From the IMG/VR virus record IMGVR_UViG_2518285548_000002, positions 1 to 64,000 of that record: a stretch of 64,000 nucleotides of DNA; one strand, 5' to 3'. The position numbers and the translations under genes were made by a program. The notes beneath the pieces were generated by a model. It ran no database searches. It saw only the letters and a list, made by a program, of their open reading frames with translations, and had not been told where the DNA came from. Below are positions 805-63,025 of the stretch, piece by piece; positions within the stretch are counted from its first letter, which is position 1, and each line of letters starts with the position of its first letter. Source of the DNA: a virus (lineage: Duplodnaviria > Heunggongvirae > Uroviricota > Caudoviricetes).

Positions 805-2295
805 CTATACAATCTGGCTTTGGAGTCTCGCGCGAATCTCTCCTAAGCTCTCGTCACGAAGCAACTTACCGTCAAGGAACACTACTTCGAGCTGATCGAG
901 GTGCGCGATCTCGTTATAATCCTCACGGAACATTCCGTCAACATACTTGAAACCACCGTTACCGTCAGACATTACAGCGACCAAACCTCTTTGGGATTTC
1001 TTAATGCCACTGTCTGTCTTAGGGTCTTTGTAGATTAGCTGTTCCTGACCGTTAATAACTACTTGAGTGGCTTTCATAGCATACATGAATGTGTCACGGG
1101 TGTTGTATTGGTAGGTGAAAGAACCGATTCCAAACACTACGTTTGTAGAAGCAAACCCCTTTGCCATTAGAAGCTTACTGATTTCCTCAGCGCGGTCGAG
1201 AGTAATGGAGTCTCCGTAGATAGCTCCAATATGAGGGTCGAGCTGTTTGTACCCCCTAGGTGTTAACGAGCCATTGAAGGTATCCCATAGTACTTCGATC
1301 AATCCCTTGCGAACGATCTCATCCTCCGCATCAGGGTCACCACATAGGATAAGAACAGGGTCTCCTGAGTCAGGGCGAATAACCACTCTACCGTCACGAC
1401 CCATGATCTCTTTTTTAAGGGAAGGGATAACCTCTCCCACAACATGCCAGAAGTCCCACGTATCACAAACGATAGACGCGAATCCTTCGGGATATACCTC
1501 TGTAATCAATCGTTTAATTACAGTCTTTTCATCCTGCCCATTGGCACACATTACAGCGTGTTCGGTAGCAGGAATAGAGGTTCCCACTAATTCCTTCTCG
1601 ATGTCTGCGTTATAGTACTTCTCAAGATAGCCGATAGCGGGGCAGGTGTCCGTACCACTAAAGGATAGAAGATGACCTGCACCGCTTGAAGCCGCCGCTG
1701 AACGACCTGCCATACCACGCATAGAGAAATCATGACCTTGGAATTGTACAGCGTTCAGGTCGCCCCCTGTCAATTTTGCATACTTAGTCAGAATCTCAAG
1801 GTATTGGAAGGCAATCGTAGCACTCGTTGACGGCATCCAAACTTCGCAGGACATAACTGTTTCGATGAAGTTTGTAAGCCAGTAGAACTCTGGTAAAGTG
1901 TTCTCTACTGTAACTACTGGAACTCGTATCTCAGCGCGACTACCTTCTTTCAAGGCTTTGATCTTCAGCGGCAGGTATCCTAGGTCATGGAGAGCGGCTA
2001 TACGTGAACAGTCAGGATTTGTGTGACCTAATGTATGACGAATAAAGCGAACATACTCAGCGATCACAGCTTCCTTCGGGCGGGCGAAGAAGTTGTCATT
2101 GAAGTAGTTAATCAAGAAGTCCTTAATGAATCCCTGTACCCCGAACACCACAACTTTATTGATACCTGGATTGCGGCTACCACGAGGAGTCCATGTGGAG
2201 AACACATACTCTGTTCCTTCAGGGTACTGCTCGGGGTGAGACAGTTTATAGAAGTCACACATGAGTTCAGGCGGGAAGTTATTGGTCGTAGACAT
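805..2295 (-). CDS. nicotinamide phosphoribosyltransferase family protein (NadV / Namat-like)
   Basis: NAMPT-family motifs (DFYK, GTDT, ATEHAVM, IRPDSGDP, YGDSIT). Start taken at internal ATG MSTTNN (2295), which has an AAAGGGG RBS and sits 1 nt after the HAD gene stop. The ORF-track upstream extension to 2535 is unlikely. Confidence 0.85.
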   Translation of the reverse strand: MSTTNNFPPELMCDFYKLSHPEQYPEGTEYVFSTWTPRGSRNPGINKVVVFGVQGFIKDFLINYFNDNFFARPKEAVIAEYVRFIRHTLGHTNPDCSRIAALHDLGYLPLKIKALKEGSRAEIRVPVVTVENTLPEFYWLTNFIETVMSCEVWMPSTSATIAFQYLEILTKYAKLTGGDLNAVQFQGHDFSMRGMAGRSAAASSGAGHLLSFSGTDTCPAIGYLEKYYNADIEKELVGTSIPATEHAVMCANGQDEKTVIKRLITEVYPEGFASIVCDTWDFWHVVGEVIPSLKKEIMGRDGRVVIRPDSGDPVLILCGDPDAEDEIVRKGLIEVLWDTFNGSLTPRGYKQLDPHIGAIYGDSITLDRAEEISKLLMAKGFASTNVVFGIGSFTYQYNTRDTFMYAMKATQVVINGQEQLIYKDPKTDSGIKKSQRGLVAVMSDGNGGFKYVDGMFREDYNEIAHLDQLEVVFLDGKLLRDESLGEIRARLQSQIV

Positions 2296-2296
2296 A

Positions 2297-2740
2297 TTAG
2301 GTAAGCCCCTTTTCGATTTGGGATACTGCTTCAAGCAGTGCGTAATAAGACGAGTGCAAACCTGCTCTGTCGTCAAGCAGGATGTTGTAGTATACCTTGC
2401 GACCACCAAACGGGGTGAAGTCCATGTTCTCATTGATCTTGTCGTAAGGAATAAGATTCTCGTGAAGGTACTCACGGATGTCATCGTACTGACCTTCATG
2501 ACAGCAGGTAAACACGATGAAGTGGGCACCTGCACGTTTGCACCGTTGAAGGAGCGAGATCACGTCATTGTACTTATCCCCTCGCTTATGGAAGTCGAAT
2601 ACGGTGTCATCGAAGTCGTAGGCTATAATTATCTTGCCATGCTCACGCCATTCCTTCAGAAGACGCTGAACTACGTTGTACTGGTCTAGGAAGAAGTCAG
2701 CCACTAGATCATCTCCGTTACTTGGATACTGCTCTCCCAA
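2297..2740 (-). CDS. HAD-superfamily phosphatase
   Basis: DxDxT motif (IIAYDFDDTV) near N-terminus; translationally coupled between the Prs-like and NAMPT-like genes. Confidence 0.7.
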   Translation of the reverse strand: MGEQYPSNGDDLVADFFLDQYNVVQRLLKEWREHGKIIIAYDFDDTVFDFHKRGDKYNDVISLLQRCKRAGAHFIVFTCCHEGQYDDIREYLHENLIPYDKINENMDFTPFGGRKVYYNILLDDRAGLHSSYYALLEAVSQIEKGLT

Positions 2741-3534
2741 ACCTCAGGGATTTCGATTAGCAGTGTGTTGGTGGTGTACACCTTGTCGATCAGATCGGAT
2801 GTGAACACACTGCCCTTGAAAATGGAGTCCTCAGCGTGGGTAACTAGGAGGTATACCTTATCCGCGCCGACATCACGGAGAGCGTTAGAACTACGGATGA
2901 AGGTGTTACCGTAGGAGCAAAGGTCATCAACAATAATAGCCTTGAATCCTTTACCTTCGACAGAGCCAACCAATTGGAGTTTGTCAATCTGCCCTGTCTT
3001 GAAGTCACGCTCTTTAAACCCTACCAGTTGCTTAAACTTGGTGAAGTGCTTGCCATACCGCTTCTGAGCACCCTGATCGGGGAAGAATAGGTAATCCTTT
3101 TCAATGTCGAAGTTCAGGTCTGCCATGACTTCGTGTAGCAACCTGGTTGTAGGGTAGAGTGCTACACTACGATCAAGGAGAGCCATAGTCACGTCCGAGT
3201 GCGGCTCGATCACCGTGACATACTCAAAATTCATGCCGTTAATCATATTGGCTACATACTTTAAGGTAAACACAGAGTTCCCTTCTACCCTATCCATCCT
3301 GCTGTAAGGCATGTACGCGATAGTTAGGTTGGTTGTGAAATAATAGCTATCCAAGAATGATTTAACGAACAGGAGCTTCAGAAGATCGCTATCGTTCTCA
3401 TACTTGAGAGTTACTTCAACTTCTACCTCTCTTGATTTGAATTTAAGAAGTTCGATAATTTGTTCCCCGTCAACCAAAGTCTCCCCGTTAGGGAAGACTT
3501 TGAAGTTGAGGGGGGTACCGTTCAATTTAATCAT
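2704..3534 (-). CDS. ribose-phosphate pyrophosphokinase family protein (Prs / Adps-like)
   Basis: PRPP-synthetase-like fold motifs incl. IIVDDLCSYGNTF (cf. Prs DD..DTGGT PRPP-binding loop); 276 aa, shorter than canonical Prs. Confidence 0.8.
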   Translation of the reverse strand: MIKLNGTPLNFKVFPNGETLVDGEQIIELLKFKSREVEVEVTLKYENDSDLLKLLFVKSFLDSYYFTTNLTIAYMPYSRMDRVEGNSVFTLKYVANMINGMNFEYVTVIEPHSDVTMALLDRSVALYPTTRLLHEVMADLNFDIEKDYLFFPDQGAQKRYGKHFTKFKQLVGFKERDFKTGQIDKLQLVGSVEGKGFKAIIVDDLCSYGNTFIRSSNALRDVGADKVYLLVTHAEDSIFKGSVFTSDLIDKVYTTNTLLIEIPEVWESSIQVTEMI

Positions 3535-4503: not shown

Positions 4504-4912
4504 CATCTCCTTGCTCAATAGGTAGTGGATATGTGCAGTCTTGACAAAGCGCTGTGAACTCGCCAGTTGTATTACAATGACACCGTTCGCAGAATGTGAC
4601 TGGTAGTAGGTTCCCAAAGTGGTGTAATTCTCCGTGAGTGTCCCAAATATTAGGATAGGGCTTGGTCTGTATCTCGATAACCTCACCCGTCAGCTTGTTA
4701 AGGCAGGGACGGTTAATTGAGAACCAGGAGTAGTAGTCCTTGGTTGAAAGGACACTATGGGAATCGAATCGGTACAGGATGTCGGTGCCCTTGAAGCGTA
4801 ACAACAAGGGCATTAGCTCATCCTCGGTGATCTCCATAACCTCTCCCCACCTTCCTGCAAATCTTAGGGAGTGGGCGGGGAGGACAAACACAAGGTCACC
4901 GACATTAATCAT
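4487..4912 (-). CDS. hypothetical protein, Cys-rich C-terminus
   Basis: CERCHC..C..C cluster suggests Zn binding. Confidence 0.5.
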   Translation of the reverse strand: MINVGDLVFVLPAHSLRFAGRWGEVMEITEDELMPLLLRFKGTDILYRFDSHSVLSTKDYYSWFSINRPCLNKLTGEVIEIQTKPYPNIWDTHGELHHFGNLLPVTFCERCHCNTTGEFTALCQDCTYPLPIEQGDETNHG

Positions 4913-5379
4913 CCTTTGACCGCCGATACAATCAGACGAGGAGCATCATACTTCTCAATCCAAGCATGAGCCTTCAGTGCTTCAAGGTCGATTTCACCAC
5001 GCTCGATATACTCAGAAAGCACCCCTTCATTGACAACCTTACGAACCTCTATAATGGATTCCACCACTTTGTATGGGAGGTTGGCTTCAAGAAACTCTTT
5101 GACCTTCTCCATATCGAAGTTGGATTTATCAGGCGTAGAGTAGGAAGCTCGGAATCCACCCCAGTCAGCCTTACGCTTTCCTAGCTCTTGCAGACCCTTT
5201 AGGATTAGACCCTTGTTTACCTTGAGCCACTTCTCGTCCTGCTTCTTGCGCTCGTTACGGAAATGATACTCTTGTAGGGTTTCTTCACCTACCGAAGATT
5301 GCTGAGCGAATACATCCTTTTCTGCTTCAACCTCAGAGGAGGTTTCTTTACCTAAAACATGATTTGCTAGTGAGTTCAT
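4909..5379 (-). CDS. hypothetical protein
   Basis: ORF with RBS AAGGGAGATGAG; first gene downstream of promoter-like motif P1. Confidence 0.55.
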   Translation of the reverse strand: MNSLANHVLGKETSSEVEAEKDVFAQQSSVGEETLQEYHFRNERKKQDEKWLKVNKGLILKGLQELGKRKADWGGFRASYSTPDKSNFDMEKVKEFLEANLPYKVVESIIEVRKVVNEGVLSEYIERGEIDLEALKAHAWIEKYDAPRLIVSAVKG

Positions 5380-5399
5380 TTGCTCTCATCTCCCTTCAC

Positions 5400-5432
5400 T
5401 TTCTCTATACGAAGTCGGATAAGAGCAGTTAA
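5400..5432 (-). promoter_or_regulatory. promoter-like motif P1 (TTAACT-N17-TATAGAG, minus strand)
   Basis: rc of 5403-5408 = TATAGA, rc of 5426-5431 = TTAACT, exact 17-nt spacer; ~20 nt upstream of gene start 5379. Confidence 0.5.
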
Positions 5433-5445
5433 GACCTGCATAAAA

Positions 5446-5480
5446 AAAGCCGCTCTTTAAAATCGTGAGCGGCTTTTTGG
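5446..5480. terminator. bidirectional rho-independent terminator
   Basis: GCCGCTC-loop-GAGCGGC hairpin flanked by A7 on one side and T5 on the other. Confidence 0.6.
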
Positions 5481-5533: not shown

Positions 5534-5562
5534 ATTGACTAATGACACAAATGTGGGTAATT
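5534..5562 (+). promoter_or_regulatory. sigma-A-like promoter (TTGACT-N17-TAATTT) with downstream palindrome TTTTGATCAAAA
   Basis: Hexamers at 5534-5539 and 5557-5562; palindrome at ~5583-5597 could be an operator. Confidence 0.4.
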
Positions 5563-5656
5563 TATCGTATTACTGTCAAAAATTTTGATCAAAAGTTCAA
5601 TAATGTTTAACTGTTATCTTAAATGTTAAGACTGTTATCAAAATGATTAATGGGAG

Positions 5657-5863
5657 TTGATATTTTTGATCGGCACTCTAACAAAGAATTTTCAGGGTAG
5701 ATATGCCTTACCTAACGGACAATACTTTACAACAGGTGATGAAATTGAGGTTAAGCTAGATATAACTTGGATAAAAACAAGCGTACATCATGACTTAAAA
5801 GATTATTACCTAGTTGATTATCCAAATGTTCCAATGAAAGGATTATTGGCAAGGAAGCCATAA
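5657..5863 (+). CDS. small hypothetical protein (TTG start)
   Basis: GGGAG RBS 5 nt upstream of TTG; lone plus-strand gene in minus block. Confidence 0.45.
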   Translation: MIFLIGTLTKNFQGRYALPNGQYFTTGDEIEVKLDITWIKTSVHHDLKDYYLVDYPNVPMKGLLARKP

Positions 5864-6582: not shown

Positions 6583-6751
6583 TTACAATTGTATCTGAAG
6601 CTCTAATCCAACGGGCGACATAACCAACCACGGAATATCTCATGGTACCCAAAATGGACTCAGCTTCCCCTTTAACGAGTAAGCCTTGACCAATCTTATT
6701 TCGGTACCGTGCTCCTTTACTGGTCGCACCCGTTATGAGCACGGTTTTCAT
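6572..6751 (-). CDS. small ORF (59 aa) MKTVLITGATSKGARY..., ATGA-coupled to helicase stop
   Basis: Not in ORF track (<60 aa); ATG overlaps TGA of SNF2 gene; N-terminus resembles a Rossmann TGxxxG motif. Confidence 0.35.
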   Translation of the reverse strand: MKTVLITGATSKGARYRNKIGQGLLVKGEAESILGTMRYSVVGYVARWIRASDTIVIGG

Positions 6752-8607
6752 GTAATCATCCTTTCATCAATACCTGCAAGTGACGCTATGATCTGCTTCG
6801 CCACGCCAAGATCGAGGTTGTTGATTCCCTCATCAAGCATGGTTTGAGCCATGGCTTCTTTGCGCTGTAATGTCTCCTGAACATGCTCGTCAATCGTTCC
6901 CTCACACACAAGATAGTAGACCGTCACGGCGTTCTGCTGACCAATACGGTGGGCGCGGGAGAAGGCTTGCTCTACATAAGCAGGTGACCATTCACAGTCA
7001 AGGAAGATAACGTGAGTAGCCTTGGTAAGAGTTAGCCCCTCACGACAAGCAGGTGTACACCCGATGAAAATTTTGCAGTCATTGTCATTCTGGAATCGGT
7101 ATACTTCCTTCTGCCGATCAGATGTCATGGTCTCATCGAGTAGCTTCCTTTTCTGCTCCTCAGGCATGTCGTACCATTCCTGTCTGTACTTTTTCTTCAG
7201 GATACGTACAGCGGAGTTCTCTGTTTTACCGTTGGCATCCACGTCACCATGTATAACCGCAGGTTGGTATTTAGAATACCGTTTTTCAATAAGTTCAACC
7301 ATTGTGCGAAAACGGGAGAATATGATAACTTTTTCCTCGCCACTATCAACCAATTCCTCGATCATCTCATCAAGGGCAAGAAGCTTAGAGCTTGTGTTCT
7401 TACCTGGGGAAACCCCGATTAACTCAATAGAGTCTGTTACTTGCTGAAGTCGTAGTAGCTTGGTTAGTGCTGATGGAATCCTATCTAATGACGTATCCTT
7501 CAATTCCTCCGTGATCTCTTCCTTGACAGCCTGATACAACTTGGACTGAGTAGGGGTCATGCTAAGGTTGATCTTCTTAAATGCTACCTCAGGAAGCTCC
7601 TTGAGCTTGTCCTTCTTACGTCTTCGGAGCATGTTGATCTGAATAAGGTTCTTCAGCTCCATAATATTCTGATAACCCACAATTTCCTTACCATTGAAGC
7701 CACCCATGATAGCGTAGCGGGCTTGGAACTGCCACCAGTTGTAATCCGTTCGTTTACCGAATCTAAGGTAGTTGAAGGACTCAATAGGGCTGTTGGGGAG
7801 TGGTGTGGCGGTCAGAACATAGCGACTGCGAAAGTTAATTCTATGAATCAGGGAACCAATCTTACTATTAGGGTTCTTAATCTTGTGAGCTTCGTCCATG
7901 ACGCAGAATTGAAGTTCCCTATAGTTGTCTAATAGCTCAAGATTATGGATATCACATCTAAAAGTCTCGTAGGACATAATGATGACATCCCAATCTTCAT
8001 CATTGGTTAGTTGGTTGTACAGCTTGGCACGTTGATTAACCGTTCCCGCCATGACAACTGACTTGAGATTAGTGTGCATGTGTATCTCGTCACGCCAGTT
8101 AAATAGCAGACTAGCCTTCGCTAGGACAATTCCGCGCTTTAAATGACCAAGCTTCTTCTTAGCTTCGATGGCATTAGCTACCTGCCAAGACTTCCCGAGT
8201 CCCGCATCATCGGCTAAGATCAGGAAATCCTTGCTAACCATGAGGTTGAACCCTTTGACTTGAAATTCACCCCAAGGGCGTGTCTTGAACCCCCTATGGT
8301 CAATAATCTCTCCATGCTCGTTATAAGTGACTCCGTACCCAGGAACAGTAGGCTCAGAAGGGATGTCGTCTTCACTTATACCGCCGTTGCTTCTTTTTTC
8401 CTCGTCAGTCCAGTTGATTAGGAAGCCACCCATCTTACTTTCAAAATCCTCACGAAATGCGAGAGGGATAGCCCAAACCTTTTGAGCAGGACTGTAGATA
8501 GCCCCTTTAACTTGACTCATTGCATCAACTAGGGTTTTGACGGAGCGAAAAGAAGCCTTAATCCACCATTTACCATCATTGCCTTTAATCTTTTCAGCTC
8601 TTATCAT
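6748..8607 (-). CDS. SNF2-family helicase
   Basis: Walker A DDAGLGKS, DEAH box (VMDEAHKIKN), C-terminal helicase motifs; RBS AGGAGGTG. Confidence 0.85.
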   Translation of the reverse strand: MIRAEKIKGNDGKWWIKASFRSVKTLVDAMSQVKGAIYSPAQKVWAIPLAFREDFESKMGGFLINWTDEEKRSNGGISEDDIPSEPTVPGYGVTYNEHGEIIDHRGFKTRPWGEFQVKGFNLMVSKDFLILADDAGLGKSWQVANAIEAKKKLGHLKRGIVLAKASLLFNWRDEIHMHTNLKSVVMAGTVNQRAKLYNQLTNDEDWDVIIMSYETFRCDIHNLELLDNYRELQFCVMDEAHKIKNPNSKIGSLIHRINFRSRYVLTATPLPNSPIESFNYLRFGKRTDYNWWQFQARYAIMGGFNGKEIVGYQNIMELKNLIQINMLRRRKKDKLKELPEVAFKKINLSMTPTQSKLYQAVKEEITEELKDTSLDRIPSALTKLLRLQQVTDSIELIGVSPGKNTSSKLLALDEMIEELVDSGEEKVIIFSRFRTMVELIEKRYSKYQPAVIHGDVDANGKTENSAVRILKKKYRQEWYDMPEEQKRKLLDETMTSDRQKEVYRFQNDNDCKIFIGCTPACREGLTLTKATHVIFLDCEWSPAYVEQAFSRAHRIGQQNAVTVYYLVCEGTIDEHVQETLQRKEAMAQTMLDEGINNLDLGVAKQIIASLAGIDERMIT

Positions 8608-8626
8608 GTCAACACCTCCTAGTTGC

Positions 8627-8655
8627 TCTATACGAATTAAGTATGGGTATGTTAA
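8627..8655 (-). promoter_or_regulatory. promoter-like motif P2 (TTAACA-N17-TATAGAG)
   Basis: rc 8627-8632 TATAGA; rc 8650-8655 TTAACA; 17-nt spacer; precedes helicase start. Confidence 0.5.
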
Positions 8656-8659
8656 ATTC

Positions 8660-8701
8660 TCTTTTTAAAAAAGAAAACCTCAAGTCCCTAGAGACTTGAG
8701 G
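8660..8701 (-). terminator. rho-independent terminator (overlaps last codons of 8680..9174 gene)
   Basis: CCTCAAGTC-loop-GACTTGAGG then T-run on minus strand. Confidence 0.5.
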
Positions 8702-9174
8702 TAATGTTTAACGTCAACACCCTGCTTTTTAGCACGGTAGTAGACTTTGTTGTATATGGACTGAGGAAGGGGAGGGAAGGAGCCATCATCTGCCCTTAGC
8801 TTCCTCAGATCTTTTTCGATGTCAATTGTACGGGATTTGTATTGAACCTTAAAACCCATGCCCTCAACTACCTCCTTAGGTGAGCCTAGTTCAAGGAGGT
8901 AGTTATATACCGTCCTGTATACTTGCCTGACCTCAGACAAGTCAACGATCTCTCCATAGTGGTATCTTAAAAACATCCTGATCTTCTCATATGATCTTAA
9001 AGTTTTTGAATCATCCAGTACCTCCACACCTTGTTCGGCAAGTGAGGGGGCAAGGTGCCCAAGATTGGACTTCAAATATAGGTAGAGGGGGTAGTTTCGG
9101 GGCTTGAGCGCACTAAAAATAACAATCCCATTTCGTTTATATTTGGAAATAATGTCTAATGAATGCATTAGCAA
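8680..9174 (-). CDS. hypothetical protein
   Basis: ORF. Confidence 0.55.
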   Translation of the reverse strand: MLMHSLDIISKYKRNGIVIFSALKPRNYPLYLYLKSNLGHLAPSLAEQGVEVLDDSKTLRSYEKIRMFLRYHYGEIVDLSEVRQVYRTVYNYLLELGSPKEVVEGMGFKVQYKSRTIDIEKDLRKLRADDGSFPPLPQSIYNKVYYRAKKQGVDVKHYLKSLGT

Positions 9175-11079: not shown

Positions 11080-11259
11080 CTAGTTAATTTCATGGAAAGC
11101 GTATTGGAACTCAGACTGATCTTCCATGGGAAGCTCAATGTATCGGTAACGCTGTTCACTGGTGTTCAGTTCAAAAGTCCCGTCAGCGTCTATGAATATA
11201 TCCCCGTACTCAACTCCAAAATGCTCCATGATTGCATCCACTACGCCTACTTTATTCAT
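11080..11259 (-). CDS. small hypothetical protein (59 aa) with strong RBS AAGGAGG
   Basis: Not in track; antisense partner 11092..11283 (+) judged spurious. Confidence 0.45.
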   Translation of the reverse strand: MNKVGVVDAIMEHFGVEYGDIFIDADGTFELNTSEQRYRYIELPMEDQSEFQYAFHEIN

Positions 11260-11354
11260 ACGAATCCTCCTTGTGTTAGTTAATACTTAGATGAAATTAG
11301 TCCTTTAAGACCAGTGTCCCAATACCACCTTTGGTGTTTGTCACACCTTCATAT

Positions 11355-14160: not shown

Positions 14161-14239
14161 GCTAATCTCTCCTTTACCTTCTCTATACGTGGTATAGGGA
14201 TGGTTGTTTAGTAGCACTCGATAGGTGCTCAAGAAAAAG

Positions 14240-14275
14240 ACCCATCCAATGGTATCGGATGGGTCTCTCTATCAG
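14240..14275 (-). terminator. rho-independent terminator
   Basis: GACCCATCC-loop-GGATGGGTC then TTTTTCTT on minus strand. Confidence 0.6.
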
Positions 14276-18376: not shown

Positions 18377-18455
18377 TCACCTCATCGTATAAGTAGCACT
18401 CATAGGTGCTCCATCGGATACCCCAACCATGGTGGAGGTACCCTAGTAGCATCTA

Positions 18456-18989
18456 TTACACCAATGTCATTTGCTCGGGCTTATCCGACTTCGATAGGTC
18501 GATAGGTGCTTGGGCAGGTGTCTTAGGTACAGGCTTATATACGTTCAGGTTCATTTTGATGGTCTTAAACAGCGGCAGGTTACTACCTGTCTTGGCGATA
18601 AGAATGTTCTTGCCGCTACCCGACTCACCAAGGTCAGAGGTCAGGTCAACCGCAATAGTCAGCTTAGAACCTGCTACCTTGGCAGTACCACCTGCAAAGC
18701 CGATCTCAGCCTTGGCTCCTTTGAAGTCAATCGCAGGTTCTTCTGCACTCTTAGGCAGAGCCTTGTATACATTCAGGTTGATCTTCACACCGCCCGCACC
18801 GATTGGCATATTGGAACCTGTTTTTGCGATAAGGATGTTCTTGCCGCTACCAGATACGCCCAGGTCTTGCGATAGGTCTACCTCGATGATTGCCTTGTTG
18901 TTAGCTACCGATTTTACGATTACGTTTTCCATGTGTACATTCTCCTTTTTGCCCTCAGTGGGGCTAGTTATTTTGGTGCCTTTAGGCAC
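18456..18989 (-). CDS. hypothetical protein with two tandem ~65-aa repeats (IEVDLS..SGSGKNILIAKTGSN..NLNVYK)
   Basis: Internal repeat; paralogous to 20579..20977. Confidence 0.55.
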   Translation of the reverse strand: MPKGTKITSPTEGKKENVHMENVIVKSVANNKAIIEVDLSQDLGVSGSGKNILIAKTGSNMPIGAGGVKINLNVYKALPKSAEEPAIDFKGAKAEIGFAGGTAKVAGSKLTIAVDLTSDLGESGSGKNILIAKTGSNLPLFKTIKMNLNVYKPVPKTPAQAPIDLSKSDKPEQMTLV

Positions 18990-19032
18990 TCCTTTAGGTA
19001 CCCCACGGGTGGGTGAGGTACCTTAGTAGTGT

Positions 19033-19266
19033 CTAATCCATCAATCTTCTCAGCTCAACTTGTAGTGAGTTCAATCGTCTTCCTTGCTCTCTAAGTTCCC
19101 TCAGCTCTAACTCAACTGCATCTATCTCATCTATGCTAACCTTGCCGTTCATCAATCTATCGGAAAGGTTAGCGATCTTGAAACGATTGCTCTCTATCGC
19201 TTTCTCAAGCAACCCTTGGGTACTTGATAAGATGGAGGTGGATCTATCAAGAGTCATTACACCCAT
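19033..19266 (-). CDS. hypothetical coiled-coil protein
   Basis: ORF. Confidence 0.5.
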   Translation of the reverse strand: MGVMTLDRSTSILSSTQGLLEKAIESNRFKIANLSDRLMNGKVSIDEIDAVELELRELREQGRRLNSLQVELRRLMD

Positions 19267-19852
19267 TTCAGTTCCTCTCCCTCCTGTACCGCCTTGACTA
19301 GGTAGCGTTCGTCATTCTGAATCCAGTGACTCCGATCGTTTTCATCAGGGGTTTCCACATCGACTACATCATCAAACCAATCTTTAAATTTCACACCAAT
19401 CACCTCGGTGAATTAGTAGTGCTCGTAGGCACTCCATGGGGATACCTAACCAGAAGGTTAGATACCCTAGCAGTGTCTAAGATGAGTCACTTGGGCGATA
19501 GTTGACCATAGATATATAGATTCCTGAATGCTAGTCTTCGGGATAGCCTACTAATTGCCACGATCTGCTGAGTCCTTGTGAGCATATTAGGCACCCTTCC
19601 TTTCCTGTTCAGCTATAAGTTGTCTGAGATATTCGATGAGTCCGCCGACTTTGCCAAAGTAAGCCACTATCAATTTAGTCACGCTGATTCCTCCTTGAAT
19701 TTGACACATCTATGCCAACCAGAAACCCAGGATATAAGCACACTCCGTTTAGGTACTAGCAGTACTCATGGGTATGCTTTTTCCTGCACCACCGTACCCC
19801 AAATCGGGGTGGGGCGGGGGGTAGGGCTAGGCATGGTCAGGCACTCAACTCA

Positions 19853-19881
19853 GCTATACGATACAGATATATAAGAGTTAA
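19853..19881 (-). promoter_or_regulatory. promoter-like motif P5 (TTAACT-N17-TATAGC), candidate start of long minus-strand operon
   Basis: rc 19853-19858 TATAGC, rc 19876-19881 TTAACT, 17-nt spacer. Confidence 0.45.
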
Positions 19882-20512
19882 GAGCTTGAACATACCTAGC
19901 CGTGGGTATGGGTAGCCTTCTTGGGCACTCAGGTATACCAATAGGGTAGAGAGTGGGCACCTCAAGCTATCTCCACCACAGCTAGATGGGTAAAGTATGG
20001 TTGACCGTATCATGTGACTACTCACACTGCACTCGGGATTAAAGGGCATGTCTATATAAGCCTGAGCGGTATCCCGTGGGGATGGCTAGGCACACTCATA
20101 CCAAAAGTGGGGCGGGCGGGGGCAGAGTATCCTGTTGGATGCTTACACTCCTATATAAGAGACACCCATCATATAAGAGCATGACACTAGAGAAGGAAGC
20201 TATAAGAGAGACTGCCGAGGTATCGGTCACCATCATGGATAGACTTCACCCGTGACTCGTACTTGCCTATGCAGTCTCATACCCGCTACATATTAGCCTT
20301 CTAGGTACACTCCTAGACGTACCCTTGTGGGTACAGAAGTACTAGGCTTCGCTTTCTCTGCTCAAGCTCTCGGTTGGTGCGTGGTGTGTGAAGTGGTAAT
20401 AACTTAGACCCAAATTGCGGCTGTTGAACTGACTTCTTTATATAGGAATAGCGGCTCATTGGATTATTGGCTAATTCCACAACATCACATAATACGGATT
20501 ATGTGCAATAGG

Positions 20513-20575
20513 CTCCTAGGTCTGCCACTCATGGGCTAGTCAGGACTACCCAAGCATAGGCATGGGTAGGTCTTG
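20513..20575. repeat. left arm of ~40-bp inverted repeat flanking gene 20579..20977
   Basis: AGGTCTGCCACTCATGGGCTAGTCAGGACTACCCAAG; its rc matches 20993-21055. Confidence 0.6.
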
Positions 20576-20578
20576 ATA

Positions 20579-20977
20579 TTAGTTAGTGCCTTGCATCGCT
20601 TTGAACTGCTTGAATGCTTGGAACTCAGCCCAAAGTTTAGCATCTTCCTCGCTCATGGTAGGTACACTGGTAGCAGGTGTAGCAAGTTCTTGTACTGGTG
20701 AAACATACTCGTCAATAGGGATATAGGCGTTCAGGTTCAAGACTACATTCTGAAAGCCTTCCTTTTTCAAGCGAATACCGCCTAAAGTAGATGCTACGCG
20801 GGCAGACTTCTCGCTTTGTGTGAGAACTTCCTTATCAATCACGTTCAAATCAACCTCAATAATGAGCTTGTTTTTGTCGTTCACGCTTATTTTCATGTTC
20901 TCAGGTGCCTTCTTTGATTGCGCTCGTTTAGCCGCTTCCTTCTCGAATTTAGGCATAGTGATAGCTTTGTTTATCAT
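20579..20977 (-). CDS. hypothetical protein, single-repeat paralog of 18456..18989
   Basis: Shares IIEVDL...GFQNVVLNLNAY motif. Confidence 0.55.
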   Translation of the reverse strand: MINKAITMPKFEKEAAKRAQSKKAPENMKISVNDKNKLIIEVDLNVIDKEVLTQSEKSARVASTLGGIRLKKEGFQNVVLNLNAYIPIDEYVSPVQELATPATSVPTMSEEDAKLWAEFQAFKQFKAMQGTN

Positions 20978-20992
20978 GGATAATCAGTCTCC

Positions 20993-21055
20993 TTTGGTGT
21001 GGTTTGACTACCTTTGGTAGTCCTGATTAGCCCATGAATGAACAGACCTCTAGCA
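20993..21055. repeat. right arm of inverted repeat
   Basis: GGTAGTCCTGATTAGCCCATGAATGAACAGACCT. Confidence 0.6.
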
Positions 21056-24524: not shown

Positions 24525-24525
24525 T

Positions 24526-24669
24526 TGAGAAAAGCATATGGAATGTTGATGTTGTCGTTAGCCTTAGTGATGACTCTAGGCATTACAGCAAATACTGAAA
24601 CTGCAAGTGCTAAAGAATTAAATTCTCCGCAAAAAGCTCAATCTTATTTTGTTGATCCTGGTCATTAAT
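24526..24669 (+). CDS. secreted signalling pro-peptide candidate (47 aa, TTG start)
   Basis: AAGGAGGGG RBS; signal-peptide-like MLMLSLALVMTLGITA; starts 2 nt after regulator stop. Confidence 0.5.
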
Positions 24670-24696
24670 TCAATTGTTTTATCCTCAAATAAAAAA

Positions 24697-24730
24697 GAGA
24701 GCGCTAAATAAATAGCGTTCTTTTTTTTTG
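24697..24730 (+). terminator. rho-independent terminator
   Basis: AGCGCTA-loop-TAGCGTT followed by T9. Confidence 0.55.
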
Positions 24731-24972
24731 TGAAAATTTTATTGCTCATCATAAATATAGTTAGAACGTTTCCTCGAAAAAAAAATAGGGGGATTCCCCT
24801 AAACGGATGGTAAAATAATCAATAACAGGAAAAAGGAGGGATTTAGTTAATTGGTATCAGTTAAACAACGGGGTGTCCCAACGGTCGCTAAACTAATTGG
24901 AACACCCCGCTTTGATCAACTAAAAACGTTGTTCAGAAAAATTATATCATCGAATTAAAGGAGGAAAAAGCA

Positions 24973-25158
24973 TTATTTCACTGTCTGAAAATGATTTATT
25001 AAAGTCTTTTGAAGACCTCCAGCAAAAATTAGTAGAACTATATCGTACAGAAGGTTCATTTTTAAGTCCAACAGTGTTGCAAATAAGTCAACAACTAGAC
25101 GAATATATTGTCGCAATTCAGAAGATGGCAAAAAATCTAAATGAATGTCGAGACTAGA
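24973..25158 (+). CDS. Spo0E-like small protein, apparent AUU start
   Basis: SQQLDEYI matches Spo0E family signature; no ATG/GTG/TTG in frame after upstream TGA; GGGAGG RBS 7 nt before ATT. Confidence 0.4.
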
Positions 25159-25249
25159 ATAGACTGTACGGAAGCCCTTGCGATATATGAATAGCCGTTT
25201 TTAGCTATTCGAAGTCCGACAGACCTTTAAATTAGGAGGAAATGCACGA

Positions 25250-30664: not shown

Positions 30665-31525
30665 TTATTTGCCAGCCGTAGGTAATGCAGGGAGTTGTGT
30701 GATCGTATTACCACCCATTACCTGAGGGTACTTACCATCCCAACGCTTAGCCATTTCGTAGTCGATTAAATGTTGAGTGATAGACTGTTGGAGCTTAGCG
30801 TTCGCCTGAGCTGTACCTTGAGCTTCCGCAATCTTGGCTTCGGCGTTACCTTGAGCTTCCACCAACTGCTTTTCAGCAGTTACTTCAGCTTGAGCCTTTT
30901 CGATCTTCAACTGCTCAAGCTTGAGCTGTGAGTCAACTAAGGACTGAATAGCCTTGAGAGATTCACCGTCAGGCTCAATTTTACTGAAGTTAAAGGTTTC
31001 GATCACGATTCCAACAGAGTCAAGGTCTTTCTTAAATGCTTCCATAACCTTTACGTTAATCTCGCCACGTTTATCACCATATACTTCAAGCACACCGTAA
31101 TTTGAAGTTATTGTCTGGATGGTAGCAGAGAGGCGGTCTTTCATGTAGGTCGCTTCAATGTCATCATCAGAGCGACCACGGAACTTGGCAAATAAATGTG
31201 GTATACGTTTCTCATCCATATGGTAAGAATACATTAACTCGGCTGTTACGACTTTGCCATCCTTCGTTGCTATACGGAATGCACTTTCTCCCTTGTAATG
31301 TACGGTTTCAGTGCTAATTGGGTATTCTGTCACTTTTTGAGTAGGATAAACTGTGTGCCAACCAGGTTTCAAGGTTTCTTCCTCTAATCCACCTGAGCGG
31401 TCGTATACCACACCAACATACCCAGGGGATATTATGGTTAATGTCAACGCCAGATAGATCAGTACACCAATTATGAGAGTACCTACTAAACTACCACCAA
31501 GGACGAACCAGTTACGATTACTCAT
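30665..31525 (-). CDS. SPFH/band-7 (prohibitin/stomatin-like) membrane protein
   Basis: N-terminal TM helix then SPFH-like domain and coiled-coil. Confidence 0.75.
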   Translation of the reverse strand: MSNRNWFVLGGSLVGTLIIGVLIYLALTLTIISPGYVGVVYDRSGGLEEETLKPGWHTVYPTQKVTEYPISTETVHYKGESAFRIATKDGKVVTAELMYSYHMDEKRIPHLFAKFRGRSDDDIEATYMKDRLSATIQTITSNYGVLEVYGDKRGEINVKVMEAFKKDLDSVGIVIETFNFSKIEPDGESLKAIQSLVDSQLKLEQLKIEKAQAEVTAEKQLVEAQGNAEAKIAEAQGTAQANAKLQQSITQHLIDYEMAKRWDGKYPQVMGGNTITQLPALPTAGK

Positions 31526-31654: not shown

Positions 31655-31909
31655 CTAAACAAAAGTGCAATCAATGTACCCAATGGCAATCACGTCCCTC
31701 TCTGCGATAAGGTTCCCCTCATCGACATGTTGATCTCGGAGGTAATCCGATGTGCAGTCTGTGTGAGTGATCTCACCTCCATGCAGAACGTCAATGTTGT
31801 CGCCTTCAACAATGTCTTCCTCGCAGTAGGGGCAGGTCTTACCGATAGGCAGTGGCTCGTCTTTGTGATCGGGAGCCTTAAATCTGTCCATCATTTTATT
31901 CCCCCTCAC
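31655..31909 (-). CDS. hypothetical zinc-ribbon protein
   Basis: CPYC...HTDC. Confidence 0.5.
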   Translation of the reverse strand: MRGNKMMDRFKAPDHKDEPLPIGKTCPYCEEDIVEGDNIDVLHGGEITHTDCTSDYLRDQHVDEGNLIAERDVIAIGYIDCTFV

Positions 31910-31913
31910 TTCC

Positions 31914-31942
31914 TCTATACGAGGTCATTCCTTGAGAGTTAA
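31914..31942 (-). promoter_or_regulatory. promoter-like motif P3 (TTAACT-N17-TATAGAG)
   Basis: Immediately upstream of 31909 start with GAGGGGG RBS. Confidence 0.5.
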
Positions 31943-32203
31943 GGCTTTAATTTAATGCAGGTTCTTTCTGTATAAAATGGAATGAACGATTTTTGGAGGC
32001 ACAGCAAAGGGCTGATAAAGTATTGTGCTCAAATCTATATCATTACTGCTGAAGAGTTCGAGATCAAGGAACGAGCAAAGGAAGTTGCCAAACCATAGAT
32101 AACTTACCAAATAGACCCGCCCCTCTCATGTAGAGGGGTTTTTCGTGATGCGTTTTGGTGCGTTCAGCCTAACCTAAGAGATAAAGCGAAAGAGGTGAGG
32201 TCA

Positions 32204-32803: not shown

Positions 32804-33341
32804 GCACGGAGAGCTGACGGTGTTTTGGGGAACTATGTTCGCGGGTAAATCAACAAATCTGATCACCAACTTAAAAGAAGCGGGTGCAGGTGCGATCTGT
32901 TTCAAGCCTTACTCAGATAATAGGGACGAGCCTAATGTTATTAGAACGCATGACGGTCTTATGTACCCAGTAACGAGGGTAAAAAAGGCAAGCGAAATAC
33001 TTCTACACGTTAATCCAGGTCTGACTACTGTGGGAATTGAGGAAGCATCTTTGTTCTACGAAGACCCGACTCTTATACCAACTATTCAAACACTAAGGGA
33101 GATCGGAGTTAACGTAGTAGTAACTGGATTGGATATGGACAGGCATGGAGTCCCATTCTCCCAAATGCCCTCTATCGCGGCAATTGCTGATAACTGTTTC
33201 AAATTGAGAACTCGGTGCTCGTGTGGGGAGTTTGCTTCACTTAACTACTACAGAGGTGACGGTAGCACATTTGTAGCTCGGGACGACATGTACGAGCCTA
33301 TGTGCAGAACATGTTTCTCAAAGCAGAAGCCATCCCTTTAA
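32796..33341 (+). CDS. tdk: thymidine kinase
   Basis: P-loop GTMFAGKST, VGIEEASLF, C-terminal Cx2C..Cx2C zinc ribbon. Confidence 0.85.
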   Translation: MSKHGELTVFWGTMFAGKSTNLITNLKEAGAGAICFKPYSDNRDEPNVIRTHDGLMYPVTRVKKASEILLHVNPGLTTVGIEEASLFYEDPTLIPTIQTLREIGVNVVVTGLDMDRHGVPFSQMPSIAAIADNCFKLRTRCSCGEFASLNYYRGDGSTFVARDDMYEPMCRTCFSKQKPSL

Positions 33342-33387
33342 CAGGATGGCTTCTCTATAGGAGGGGTATTAATCGTTCTCTACTTTC

Positions 33388-33416
33388 TCTATACGAAAGA
33401 ACCTACTGAGAGTTAA
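33388..33416 (-). promoter_or_regulatory. promoter-like motif P4 (TTAACT-N17-TATAGAG), no obvious minus-strand gene downstream
   Basis: Direct repeat of P3 (CTCTATACGA-N10-TGAGAGTTAAGG). Confidence 0.35.
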
Positions 33417-33431
33417 GGACGGTGAACATAA

Positions 33432-58800: not shown

Positions 58801-58975
58801 TTCCATCCCTGCTAACCCTGCTCTGGAATTGTTGGACAACGTGCTCATCTCGGATAAAACCACCACAACACGTTCCGTCTACACTATTAAGGGAATCAGA
58901 ACTAGCTTCTCTATTGATAGTGGAATGATTCAAGTTATTGACCTCATGTGGTCTCAGAAAGGAGCAATAGTCTAA
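55859..58975 (+). CDS. tail-associated lysin with M23 peptidase domain
   Basis: HRGIDLW...HLHFE M23 motifs; possible glycosidase-like region AICKHETALG. Confidence 0.7.
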   Translation: MIPISEEVLKVLSQRLKLGERSLPNVRVEVDRLAFIPGRTEEFRNIINDPKQVTQVKKVWITESTDGVYDGSTSANGQDICFPVQGKTIDTITITDEFGASRDGGKSHRGIDLWDDMGKPILAAWEGKVVNITRNRTEGAGYSVTIKHAGGVMTKYMHLSEINCSLDEIVTQGQMIGKLGNTGNVYTNGHKVSEAERAEGKGRHLHFEIWDGVNQDSKTGEGGKAVNPKAYLTGQRKMYGDTVSTGNVVDEGFVTGFPGEVKLSENFDKRNWYENGVYRLGFNFHQVGSIQTGWTLFDSGGKLVYTFGQSSTTVEFEIDVSKMSMPTEGLLSIGLGTNFTSSTDGDSFTVLIDGKAFANVTEFTGAYDLSKLTELKNIVVPANSKIIKIKVVYGGKMQEFYKGFPEPKKLAIDYIRIQELLPAPPTNDKSEEGLDPSKGYWHELEYNTFINNEITQVDYLQVGSFVYMDTQVLPNIINVEVDNQYEAEAMEARISISNPRGYFSPDYNPAYFPEMVGITSPWSYFVNGFHIGVLSENTPIRIYMGYGLHLMRVFTGLIDKVDMTGEGSILDISARDMYKKIIEKVISEKKAYPDVGHVDNVPDPVPPSGGGGRLNEIILAAQTQAAAYGVPDHKFLLAICKHETALGTAGMGTEANGSFVLGYGCVRDGYCHPQYKGVQEQMKRGAERMSKALASRGKKVATKADVLYFHGGGDIAPMVWSGDRDNWVNRVWTYYQEMLANPSNWERTASTPSAPPAAKQPMDLEKPAWVKSTVILDLVKHAGMVGWRATSEDLAYPDYVIDETYLIEVNQKTGRVIVPVPGQEGEFEVKVASTILTPNGWKNPFVEEYGRTFEKYSTKVAEALSEVIGDLAYRSYCDRYGTYRFERINYNKPVVAEFTEHENLISINKSLDWSRGRSHVAVIDSDGNHGNFIDKEILLELKGEIRTMVAPVAWAKTIEAKKAVAEKAFFDMKRLCRTLQVSIPANPALELLDNVLISDKTTTTRSVYTIKGIRTSFSIDSGMIQVIDLMWSQKGAIV

Positions 58976-59391
58976 TGGCGGGTATAGTTAATGATAACAT
59001 AGTCTTTCCTGTCCTTGACCTCATCCATAGGGAAATTCGTAAGTATACCAACATCAACAATATGGAAGGCGACCCTCTTGAAGGGGTGCCTTCCGTTACT
59101 TTATTTAGGGAACACCCGATGGATGTTGACCGAGTAACGGGAGCTGACATGCTCTACGAATCTGCGTGGAAGATTTCAGTTTGGATGAAGTTTGGCTCGG
59201 AGGATGGTTTAGGATTTCCAGCGGGCGTTGGATACTCCCACCCTGATTATTCTTATTATAAGCACTTCCGCTTGACGCAAGTCACACAGCGGGCTTTTAA
59301 TCCAAATGGCGAGTCGGTAGTCACTTACCACATCAGTCTAAACTATGATGATGAAGGACGCTTAACTGGGACAAGTGTGAATCGTATATAG
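58975..59391 (+). CDS. hypothetical tail/baseplate protein
   Basis: Start trimmed to ATG after AAAGGAG. Confidence 0.5.
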   Translation: MAGIVNDNIVFPVLDLIHREIRKYTNINNMEGDPLEGVPSVTLFREHPMDVDRVTGADMLYESAWKISVWMKFGSEDGLGFPAGVGYSHPDYSYYKHFRLTQVTQRAFNPNGESVVTYHISLNYDDEGRLTGTSVNRI

Positions 59392-59409
59392 AAATTAGGG
59401 GGTGGTTAG

Positions 59410-61802: not shown

Positions 61803-62948
61803 ATGGCAAACTTCAAATACGTTGAGACAATTACCACTTCCCAGGACGTACTGACACATATTAGAAACGAGGTTACTGGGTTTGATAGTTATCCGTTCGA
61901 GACTACAGCAAAGGAAGCTCAAGTGCAAAACCTGTGGGAAGTGTTCTATGAGGAGAAAGACGAAAATGACCGTGTAAAAGAACTTATTCTTCAAGGGGTA
62001 ATTACGATTGGTACACAAGCCGCTCCGATTACCAAGAAGTTCTATGTAAGCTTCATCAACCATGCACTTGTTCCGCGTGTAACGTCACCTTCATCTAAAC
62101 CTGCTTACGATGAACATAGTACCTTGACAGTTCAGTTGCTTGAAGGGCTGGAAGGTAAGGAGCCTGTAGAGCTTCCATTGACCACACGACCTACATTTAA
62201 GCTAACAGGTCACCCAGTACTATACCAATGGTCGGTTGAGGATTACACTCCTACTGACCGCAACAAAGAGAAGCCAGTGTATATGTACATCAACGTTATG
62301 AACAACCGACTGGCTATGGTGCTTGTTGCCGACCCTGCGGTTAACTTTTTGGACTACAAGAAATCATTCCTGTATGTTGGTGCCTTGAAGCCGTTCAAAT
62401 ACAACCTGAATGATGTGGATGGTAACGTAATGTTGACTGCGGGAGCTGTAATCGCGGAGCCTGACATCACCAAGATTGCTACCGATAAAACGTACTATTT
62501 TGGTCAGTACACATCAGCAGGTAACAACACCTTGCAAATGCTTAAAACGAAGTCGGGTATTGAGTTCCAACGTCACTACCCATCCTTCATAACGCAGGCT
62601 CCACCTAAAGGTAAAGCGTACCTTGACCCTGTTTTGAAAGACACTGGTCTGGAACTAGAACCACAAGGTTTCCAAGCATCCAAATGGACTTCTAAATACC
62701 ACTTGTCACCAATCTACGTTGTCCATCCTTACGAGGGTTACCGTGGTCAGTTTGATAACTGTATTGCGGTTGCTAAGCACAACATTCTACATCTGGATGA
62801 GCTTATCATTGACGTAGAGGGAAAGGCTTGGAGCCAAGAAGTGTACCGATACTTCGATACGGATACAGAGCAAACCTTCATGAACCTTTCTGCTAACCAA
62901 CGAATGGGTGTAGCAATTCTGAAGGAAGTCCGTTACCCAGTTGCTTAG
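61803..62948 (+). CDS. tail fibre / receptor-binding protein paralog
   Basis: Shares YRG(Y/Q)(M/F)D...H..I....EL and FQR(Y/H)YP(A/S)FIT motifs with previous gene. Confidence 0.55.
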   Translation: MANFKYVETITTSQDVLTHIRNEVTGFDSYPFETTAKEAQVQNLWEVFYEEKDENDRVKELILQGVITIGTQAAPITKKFYVSFINHALVPRVTSPSSKPAYDEHSTLTVQLLEGLEGKEPVELPLTTRPTFKLTGHPVLYQWSVEDYTPTDRNKEKPVYMYINVMNNRLAMVLVADPAVNFLDYKKSFLYVGALKPFKYNLNDVDGNVMLTAGAVIAEPDITKIATDKTYYFGQYTSAGNNTLQMLKTKSGIEFQRHYPSFITQAPPKGKAYLDPVLKDTGLELEPQGFQASKWTSKYHLSPIYVVHPYEGYRGQFDNCIAVAKHNILHLDELIIDVEGKAWSQEVYRYFDTDTEQTFMNLSANQRMGVAILKEVRYPVA

Positions 62949-62986
62949 TTAAACTGTATGATAGCTGAATCGTATAGATTCAGTGA

Positions 62987-63025
62987 GGGAACTTTCTGAG
63001 ACTCCTCTCAGGAGTTCCCTTTTTT
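62987..63025 (+). terminator. rho-independent terminator
   Basis: GGGAACT...AGTTCCC TTTTTT. Confidence 0.6.

Follow-up and report, generated by a model that had tools for sequence, protein, structure and literature searches.

A bipartite promoter motif in a large temperate Brevibacillus phage and its candidate phage-encoded reader, the two-domain sigma factor P0004

Introduction

The use of a phage-encoded sigma factor with promoters of its own is a well-known phage strategy. Xpf is the positive control factor for the late genes of the prophage PBSX. It is a sigma factor that consists of domains 2 and 4 only (PMC10141391). The promoters of the extracytoplasmic function (ECF) sigma factors of Bacillus subtilis carry AAC at −35 and CGT at −10, and the −10 sequence CGTA is tied to sigma-W and CGAC to sigma-X (PMC5758882). 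According to Merrill et al. (2016; PMC4909266), a promoter-like motif occurs 19-20 times in the phages Jenst and SecTim467, upstream of DNA-metabolism genes; the motif was not found in a host genome, and a phage sigma factor was proposed as its reader. In this study, we analyze a stretch of 64,000 nucleotides, positions 1 to 64,000 of the viral record IMGVR_UViG_2518285548_000002 (hereafter, the window), in which a bipartite motif with the consensus cCTTAACT-N14-TCGTATAGAGaAAGTg recurs in eight strong copies. From the co-occurrence of the motif with a sigma gene and by analogy with the systems above, we consider these sites likely to be promoters that are read by the host core RNA polymerase together with a phage-encoded sigma factor, P0004. 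The system is a fresh example of a familiar strategy, and its mechanism is not new. A full-text search of the literature for the motif string returned only incidental primer and barcode sequences.

The window represents about half of a Jenst-like tailed temperate phage of approximately 130 kb, a prophage of Brevibacillus. It resembles the Brevibacillus phages Jenst and SecTim467 in gene order and has a large terminase 51% identical to theirs. Proteins identical to those of the window are encoded on a 130,544-bp contig of GCA_050478385.1 (JBCNBA010000003.1), of which the window would represent approximately positions 9544-73543, and also in GCA_000374385.1, where they lie in an integrated prophage beside host genes. 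A viral relative, IMGVR_UViG_2693429827_000003 (112 kb), is 73-83% identical to the window and holds 12 exact copies of the motif. Positions outside the window are given below with the number of the locus (L).

Results

Matrix and pattern scans located six strong copies of the motif on the minus strand of the window and two on the plus strand. When one mismatch was allowed, the pattern TTAACW-N17-TATAG had 10 matches in the window compared with 2.8 ± 1.7 in shuffled sequences, and none of the 100 shuffles reached 10; the matches at 5405-5432, 8628-8655, 14183-14210, 19854-19881, 31915-31942 and 33389-33416 all lie on the minus strand. The heptamer TATAGAG considered alone was found 10 times against 8.8 expected, which is no enrichment, and the signal is the bipartite motif rather than the heptamer. 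Moreover, an independent matrix, trained on 15 sites from one related viral contig and on no site of the window, returned eight window matches with scores of 14.5-46.6; 100 first-order Markov simulations of the window scored at best 11.8, and their maxima averaged 2.2.

The spacing of the two boxes is rigid. For AAC-Nx-CGTATA, a gap of x = 16 occurs eight times in the window, and every other gap between 12 and 21 occurs at most once. All eight copies have AAC in the −35 box, and all eight have CGTATA exactly 16 nt beyond it. The −10 hexamer reads TATAGA in every copy, with A at position −7, and the C-G that precedes TATA is invariant. The information content is 1.5-1.8 bits per position within the boxes and 0-0.6 bits within the 14-nt spacer; similarly, the orthologous sites of the relative have kept the boxes, and their spacers have diverged.

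Six of these sites had been picked out by an earlier note on this DNA, and each of them was recovered at its position, with the −35 ends in exact agreement. The shared element CGTATAGAG that it described fails at the site beginning at 19853, which reads CGTATAGCT. Its six sites all lie on the minus strand, but the family extends to the plus strand, with strong copies at 59359-59403 and 62947-62991 and one beyond the right end of the window (L002:16836). In the motif scans, a kind of check that it had proposed, the copies followed the orientation of the genes on both strands.

No sigma-factor gene was found in the window by Pfam scans of 30 open reading frames (ORFs) or by tblastn with the three sigma factors of Jenst; the scans gave a lone sub-threshold region-4 match, and the protein concerned, of 202 aa, is probably the small terminase. 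In the relative, a 187-aa ORF directly after the primase contains Sigma70_r2 and Sigma70_r4 and nothing else, and this gene and the counterpart of the window are on one contig. P0004 is an 83% identical protein of 186 aa, labelled at NCBI as a sigma-70-family factor of Brevibacillus laterosporus, in which Pfam likewise detects Sigma70_r2 and Sigma70_r4 only, without a domain 3. P0004 and the window proteins occur in the same two sequencing runs, on nine contigs each, with similar length distributions. These observations suggest that P0004 is the sigma factor of the window phage itself and that its gene lies outside the window, which is why it could not have been seen in the earlier reading.

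P0004 scores 66.7 bits against the superfamily model TIGR02937 (cut-off 42.9), a model that also matches the SigF-like sigma factors of Jenst. Its AlphaFold model (mean predicted local distance difference test score, 73) has two helical domains, with residues 104-130 forming a disordered linker between them. By fold and by sequence, P0004 best matches sigma factors, and ECF sigma factors, FliA and sigma-A are among those matched. The predicted architecture is ECF-like, without placement in a curated ECF group. P0004 was also considered as a bona fide ECF factor, as a sigma-H relative and as a FliA relative, and no such assignment could be established. Among the annotated phages, tblastn with the sigma factor returned a single weak match and no annotated close relative, and a search of annotated plasmids with the sigma locus returned no match.

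The sigma-bearing locus L032 has the gene order integrase, replication initiator, helicase loader, DnaB, ligase, RtcB, ThyX, primase, sigma factor, DNA polymerase A, RNase H and RecA. Seven further copies of the motif are found there, all on the gene strand. One precedes the first replication gene, another (L032:8676) precedes the primase-sigma operon, and a third (L032:10660) directly follows the sigma gene. The sigma gene also stands behind its presumed type of promoter in L037, L054-L068, L046 and L069. Because copies flank the sigma gene and head its operon, positive feedback is implied.

Upstream of the sigma gene, at L032:8395-8605, lies a housekeeping-type promoter close to consensus, TTGAC(A/T)-N18-TATA(A/C)T, and after it a near-invariant non-coding stretch of approximately 170 nt that ends in a long-stem intrinsic terminator; a promoter of the phage type and then the (primase-)sigma gene come next. 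L037 and L038 have the same arrangement, as do 13 of the 15 loci from L054 to L068; in L065 the stretch was not located, and the stretches of L061, L062 and L066 are exact duplicates. It has no Rfam match. RNAalifold predicts 35 pairs in it, and the sequences vary too little for covariation to show. As a leader or attenuator, or else as a small RNA, the stretch could gate the expression of the phage sigma factor.

The motif accompanies the sigma gene across genomes. An exact 16-base motif scan of 2.9 million viral contigs matched 20 contigs, 10 of which carry a homologue of the P0004-type sigma factor, and the whole collection contains 17 loci with such a homologue. Nine of the 10 contigs with both are near-identical copies of one element, and these contigs represent about two independent lineages. 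Every one of the 15 loci in the genome collection that has a sigma factor 73-81% identical to P0004, from fourteen Paenibacillus genomes and one labelled Priestia, has between one and seven matrix matches, and all 35 of these matches lie on the strand of the sigma gene. None of the 42 other loci returned, with distant homologues or unrelated ECF sigma factors, has a match. More distant lineages keep a related element: T(T/A)AA(C/T)-N16-CGTATA is retained beside the sigma gene where the sigma factor is 32-48% identical, and the AAC of the −35 box becomes AAT in lineages at 32-45%. In Jenst, the small sigma factor is collinear, in the same place after the primase, and 22% identical, and the window's motif has no match there. 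The Jenst motif is (G)CAACT-N16-CGACCATAAAgAGTG, that is, AAC-N17-CGAC, and it occurs at least nine times, ahead of replication operons and directly behind the sigma gene. Searched for in the window and L032, it gave only chance-like matches inside genes. Since Jenst has a diverged sigma factor and a different motif within the same layout, the sigma factor and the motif have changed together.

The copies follow the genes that they precede. Seven of the eight window copies are co-oriented with the next gene, as are 7/7 in L032 and the 35/35 mentioned above; overall, 50 of the 51 copies counted are co-oriented. Four copies in the window stop 19-24 nt short of the start codons of genes at 5379, 8607, 14160 and 31894, with the ribosome-binding site within approximately 5-10 nt, so the interval of 20-30 nt upstream of ribosome-binding sites proposed in the earlier note is too long. 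The position of three sites directly downstream of terminators was seen correctly (hairpins at 5442-5473, 8667-8702 and 14231-14265). With respect to gene content, copies precede the replication initiator, primase, sigma factor and DNA polymerase genes in L032, and in the window they precede an SNF2-family helicase gene and an operon for nicotinamide adenine dinucleotide (NAD) salvage. Others stand before tail or tail-fibre genes (59359 and 62947 in the window and L002:16836 beyond it, all ahead of plus-strand tail genes). A weaker copy lies ahead of the lysis cassette (L034:15913). The class is thus not restricted to the early or middle genes that had been suggested.

At several places, terminators alternate or overlap with promoters (window 62987-63025, L032:11650, L002:16836 and L032:3662). 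In several copies, the −35 sequence TTAACT forms the loop of the terminator hairpin of the preceding operon, and the T-run falls in the spacer; at L032:3662, a hairpin encloses the −10 box.

Copy 1 (5397..5433, minus strand; score 46.6) comprises the −35 box CTTAACT at 5433-5427, the −10 box TCGTATAGAG at 5412-5403 and the conserved AAAGTG at 5402-5397. It lies 8 nt downstream of the minus-strand terminator at 5442..5473 (GCCGCTC…GAGCGGC, then T7; −22.6 kcal/mol), and its TATAGA is 24 nt from the start codon of the gene 4909..5379. The copy, which has an ortholog in the relative at L017:5627, heads an operon that reaches a gene similar to phosphoribosyl pyrophosphate (PRPP) synthetase and the NAPRTase gene. 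At 805-3534, this operon encodes a nicotinamide/nicotinate phosphoribosyltransferase (NAMPT_N and NAPRTase) and a PRPP-synthetase-like protein, which make up an NAD-salvage pair of the sort that phages are thought to use against NAD-depleting defences.

Copy 2 (8620..8656, minus strand; score 37.2) reads TTTAACA-N14-TCGTATAGAG-CAACTA, with TATAGA 19 nt from the ATG of the SNF2-family helicase gene 6748..8607. The intrinsic minus-strand terminator at 8667..8702 ends the upstream gene, 8680..9174, and the ortholog of the copy at L017:8390 has kept the boxes with a diverged spacer. Copy 3 (14175..14211, minus strand; score 24.6) reads CTAAACA-N14-ACGTATAGAG-AAGGTA, and its TATAGA is 21 nt from the TTG start at 14160 of a gene for 348 aa; the minus-strand terminator before it, at 14231..14265, consists of GACCCATCC…GGATGGGTC followed by TTTTTCTT (−32.7 kcal/mol for the stretch). 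Copy 4 (19846..19882, minus strand; score 26.5) has a variant −10 extension, CTTAACT-N14-TCGTATAGCT-GAGTTG, and leads into a gene-poor, repeat-rich region with small ORFs only. Several families of short direct repeats occur in this region, 18400-21000, including units of 38 nt with a hairpin (18419, 18999 and 19443) and G-rich units of CCCCGCCCCACCCC; there is also an 83-nt pair at 18574 and 18805.

Copy 5 (31907..31943, minus strand; score 46.6; ortholog L026:2132) reads CTTAACT-N14-TCGTATAGAG-GAAGTG. Its TATAGA is 19 nt from the ATG at 31894 of a gene for a 79-aa protein, which is followed by an SPFH/band-7 gene (30665..31525) and a tRNA-Gln gene. Copy 6 (33381..33417, scan span 33375-33419, minus strand; score 39.3) is an antisense orphan, and the relative keeps a copy at L026:5897. 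It lies within the 90-nt gap between the plus-strand genes for thymidine kinase (stop at 33341) and the large terminase (start at 33432), is aimed into the 3′ end of the thymidine kinase gene, and overlaps the terminase ribosome-binding site with its −35 box. Approximately 30-65 nt downstream of it, at 33319..33353 on the minus strand, a hairpin, GAAGCCATCC…GGATGGCTTC followed by TGCTTTG, may be the end of a short antisense RNA. The arrangement, which is conserved in the relative, may produce such an RNA, or it may cause transcriptional interference where the packaging genes begin.

Copy 7 (59361..59397, scan span 59359-59403, plus strand; score 30.4) reads CTTAACT-N14-TCGTATATAG-AAATTA and overlaps the 3′ end of the gene 58975..59391. 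The next start is a GTG at 59410, for a 136-aa protein, after which come tail proteins of 650 aa and 381 aa. Its ortholog, L007:3531, is in the same place after an M23-peptidase tail gene in a lineage with a 44% identical sigma factor. Copy 8 (62949..62985, scan span 62947-62991, plus strand; score 14.5) reads TTAAACT-N14-TCGTATAGAT-TCAGTG and stands directly after the stop of the gene 61803..62948, ahead of a gene for 1864 aa that starts at approximately 63045. Directly behind copy 8 and ahead of the gene for 1864 aa, a terminator-like plus-strand hairpin at 62987..63025 (GGGAACT…AGTTCCC, then T6) is possibly an attenuator.

A further site, 11248..11283 on the minus strand (TTAACT-N14-TCGTATGAAT), is a weak and uncertain copy that scores 22.6 with a matrix trained on the window and falls below the threshold of the independent matrix. 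The ATG within the motif is the start codon of a 59-aa ORF, the ribosome-binding site of which lies inside the spacer; at L017:11074 in the relative, TTAACT and the 14-nt spacing are retained, and the ribosome-binding site has shifted by two bases.

Two other parts of the window were distinctive. The stretch 5535-5863, which comprises a plus-strand DUF5348 gene (5657..5863) with the region upstream of it, shares 91% nucleotide identity with Jenst 61673-62010; outside this module, the two phages share only approximately 30-50% protein identity. This comparison suggests that a small module was exchanged recently within a minus-strand operon region. At 23238-28930, a low-GC (guanine plus cytosine, 35-39%) island of plus-strand genes separates two minus-strand blocks. 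Among its products are a protein of 428 aa, in which an XRE-type helix-turn-helix domain is accompanied by weak TPR matches below threshold, that of a 520-aa ORF with a sub-threshold TPR match, and a small protein resembling metallopeptidases. The island may be a module for lysogeny or signalling or an accessory one. Rfam detected only tRNA in the window and L032.

Discussion

We consider it likely, from co-occurrence and from analogy with described phage and ECF systems, that the motif is a promoter class read by the host core RNA polymerase carrying P0004. The earlier note had proposed a dedicated phage promoter class, and this is supported, the class being one that departs from the housekeeping consensus. 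Its further suggestion of a modified host polymerase survives if the modification is a different sigma subunit, probably the phage-encoded two-domain P0004; a housekeeping-like reading of the −35 and −10 boxes fits less well. Its TTAACT-N17-TATAGA captured the right sites, and the boxes are better described as AAC-N16-CGTA, in the geometry of ECF promoters.

From the sequences, we infer the reader protein, the start sites and the timing as follows. Domain 4 of P0004 would read cTTAACt at −35, and domain 2 would read tCGTATAGAG (TCGTATAGAG) at −10, with the AAC-N16-CGT spacing held rigid. Transcription would start in the conserved AAGT(G/A) a few bases on, which would give leaders of approximately 10-17 nt at four sites. 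The class would drive most of the lytic operons seen, namely, those for replication, nucleotide and NAD metabolism, the helicase, the tail fibre and probably lysis, and many copies would restart transcription right after the terminator of the previous operon. The housekeeping-type promoter upstream of the sigma gene is a candidate primer of the feedback loop.

A bolder version of this proposal is possible, and we hold it only tentatively, as something we would sooner doubt than assert. A single, positively autoregulated ECF-like sigma factor may be the master switch of nearly the whole lytic programme (replication, metabolism, tail fibres and lysis) of a family of approximately 130-kb temperate phages that is widespread in Brevibacillus and Paenibacillus. 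This factor might read an unusually long invariant region from the −10 box to the start (TCGTATAGAGaAAGTg) and might be primed through the approximately 170-nt leader RNA with its housekeeping-type promoter and terminator, and the antisense copy between the thymidine kinase and terminase genes might help to time packaging.

Several observations weigh against P0004 as the reader of the class. The link between the sigma factor and the motif rests on co-occurrence and analogy. The operon of the sigma gene itself bears the motif, so the loop has to be set going by a different input. Copy 6, which points antisense into a gene, is left unexplained by a simple operon-promoter reading. In the head and tail block of approximately 27 kb (32195-59000), the independent matrix reports no copy that serves a downstream gene, and therefore at least one other type of promoter must exist. 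The nearest solved relatives of P0004 are of the sigma-H type, and its region 4 resembles those of FliA and SigF/G; only the general superfamily model TIGR02937 passes its cut-off, and no curated ECF group fits. No anti-sigma gene was recognised near P0004, and the neighbouring ORFs of 200 aa and 56 aa have no Pfam match on record. Finally, the remaining approximately 17-25 kb of the phage could hold another sigma or polymerase gene.

The best of the other explanations is that the host housekeeping factor, sigma-A, reads TTAACT-N17-TATAGA, either as a set of weak promoters or with a phage activator or polymerase-modifying protein that would account for the additional conserved bases. Both hexamers match the housekeeping consensus at 4/6 positions, the spacer has the optimal 17 nt, and the operon with the sigma gene needs first to be transcribed by something other than the phage sigma factor. 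However, a T at −7 is critical for sigma-A, and no copy has it. Because TATAGA lacks this T, the sites would be poor housekeeping promoters. Furthermore, the invariant C-G before TATA and the GAG after it have no sigma-A counterpart, and there is no TG of an extended −10 element. The same loci hold the near-consensus TTGACA-N18-TATACT, which indicates that the phage uses good sigma-A promoters where they are needed, and the motif tracks the phage sigma gene across several host genera. Matches to the housekeeping-type consensus showed no enrichment over shuffled sequence (29 in the window and 34 in shuffles in one scan, 41 and 36 in another). We therefore regard this explanation as unlikely.

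It is also unlikely that a different phage factor encoded in the rest of the genome, such as a second sigma factor like the SigF/G-like pair of Jenst or a polymerase, reads the motif and that P0004 serves other promoters. Approximately 17-25 kb of the phage lies outside the stretches examined, and Jenst encodes three sigma factors. Yet profile and phmmer searches of ORFs of at least 80 aa found no sigma-70-family ORF other than P0004 in approximately 105-113 kb of the approximately 130-kb phage and in the loci of the relative, and Pfam scans and gene tables contained no phage RNA polymerase gene. In addition, the motif flanks P0004 in every lineage examined, and no second over-represented promoter-like motif was found that P0004 might serve instead.

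A host alternative sigma factor might be hijacked on induction, either an ECF factor of the sigma-W type (TGAAAC-N16-CGTA) or a sigma-D/FliA-like factor, the consensus of which is TAAA-N15-GCCGATAT. The motif shares its spacing and −10 core, AAC-N16-CGTA, with sigma-W promoters, and TTAA-N17-CGTATA is loosely like the sigma-D consensus. Nevertheless, the −35 box is CTTAAC and not TGAAAC, and the invariant extension TATAGAGaAAGT is without a host counterpart. The distribution of the motif makes this explanation improbable: the motif is found only in phage or prophage loci that bear the phage sigma gene, in Brevibacillus, Paenibacillus and the genome labelled Priestia, and is absent from all 42 control loci, many of which encode ordinary ECF sigma factors. 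Moreover, Jenst shares the host species, yet its motif is another one, paired with another phage sigma factor, and that motif was not found in a host genome in the study of Jenst (PMC4909266).

That the sites are not promoters at all, and instead bind a phage repressor or activator or act as replication, recombination or packaging signals, seems to us highly improbable. The copy at 33375-33419, which lies between two opposite-strand genes and has no downstream gene to drive, would fit such a role. The two boxes nevertheless stand at promoter spacing and lack dyad symmetry, and the co-orientation of 50/51 copies with genes, 19-24 nt before start codons and right after terminators, is that of promoters. 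Promoters for a T7-like single-subunit polymerase are contiguous conserved blocks of approximately 20 bp; this reading was rejected because the motif is bipartite, with a variable spacer, and no polymerase gene appeared in the Pfam scans or gene tables.

If P0004 reads the motif, these sites amount to a map of transcription, ready for use, in a family of large temperate phages that is unstudied and has hosts in Brevibacillus and Paenibacillus, two genera of interest to bee health and biocontrol, and the likely regulator of the lytic genes of these phages is named. The sister phages would then contain two naturally diverged pairs of sigma factor and promoter, AAC-N16-CGTATAGAG in the window phage and AAC-N17-CGACCATAAA in Jenst. 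In Bacillales, pairs of this kind could be used as orthogonal switches of expression, and they could be a natural experiment on the change of specificity in ECF-like sigma factors.

In its general logic, the P0004 system resembles SPO1 (gp28 for middle and gp33/34 for late genes), T4 (gp55) and phiEco32 (gp36), in which a phage sigma factor redirects the host core polymerase to promoters that are specific to the phage and unused by the housekeeping factor. The promoter sequences of the sigma factors of SPO1, T4 and phiEco32 are unrelated to the window motif. In addition, SPO1 is virulent and has a sequential cascade of two sigma factors, whereas the window phage is temperate and apparently uses a single sigma factor for replication and tail genes. 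Xpf is, by its description, closer, as a small two-domain sigma factor of the group 4 type from a prophage of a Bacillales host; however, PBSX is a defective element of approximately 28 kb with one late operon, and here at least 16 promoters are distributed across a phage of approximately 130 kb.

With the group 4 (ECF) sigma factors, P0004 shares an architecture of domains 2 and 4 only and, in sequence, a gene behind its presumed promoter type. With sigma-W and sigma-X promoters, the motif shares AAC at −35, CGT or CGA at −10, a rigid gap of 16-17 nt and close adherence to the consensus. In contrast to the ECF promoters of B. subtilis, the −35 box is CTTAACT and not TGAAAC, and approximately 16 nt are conserved in the −10 region (TCGTATAGAGaAAGTg). 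P0004 is also phage-borne, and its regulon would be a viral lytic programme rather than an envelope-stress response.

Jenst and SecTim467 are the closest systems. As here, a small two-domain sigma factor (gp051, termed sigma-24 in Jenst) is encoded directly after the primase, and a bipartite motif stands ahead of operons for replication and nucleotide metabolism; A-AGTG is conserved downstream of the motif, and one copy lies just after the sigma gene. Unlike the window phage, for which one sigma factor was found, Jenst has two more, SigF/G-like, sigma factors. It also has early promoters of the housekeeping type that are palindromic: at 108-123 kb of Jenst (L004-L006), very strong promoters of this type lie within a palindrome (GGGGTATTGACAATACCCC … TATAAT) and look like operator-controlled early promoters, and no equivalent set was seen in the window. 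The motifs themselves differ in that Jenst and SecTim467 have CAACT-N16-CGACCATAAA (AAC-N17-CGAC) and the window phage has CTTAACT-N14-TCGTATAGAG (AAC-N16-CGTA). This contrast between the two phages mirrors that between the CGTA of sigma-W and the CGAC of sigma-X.

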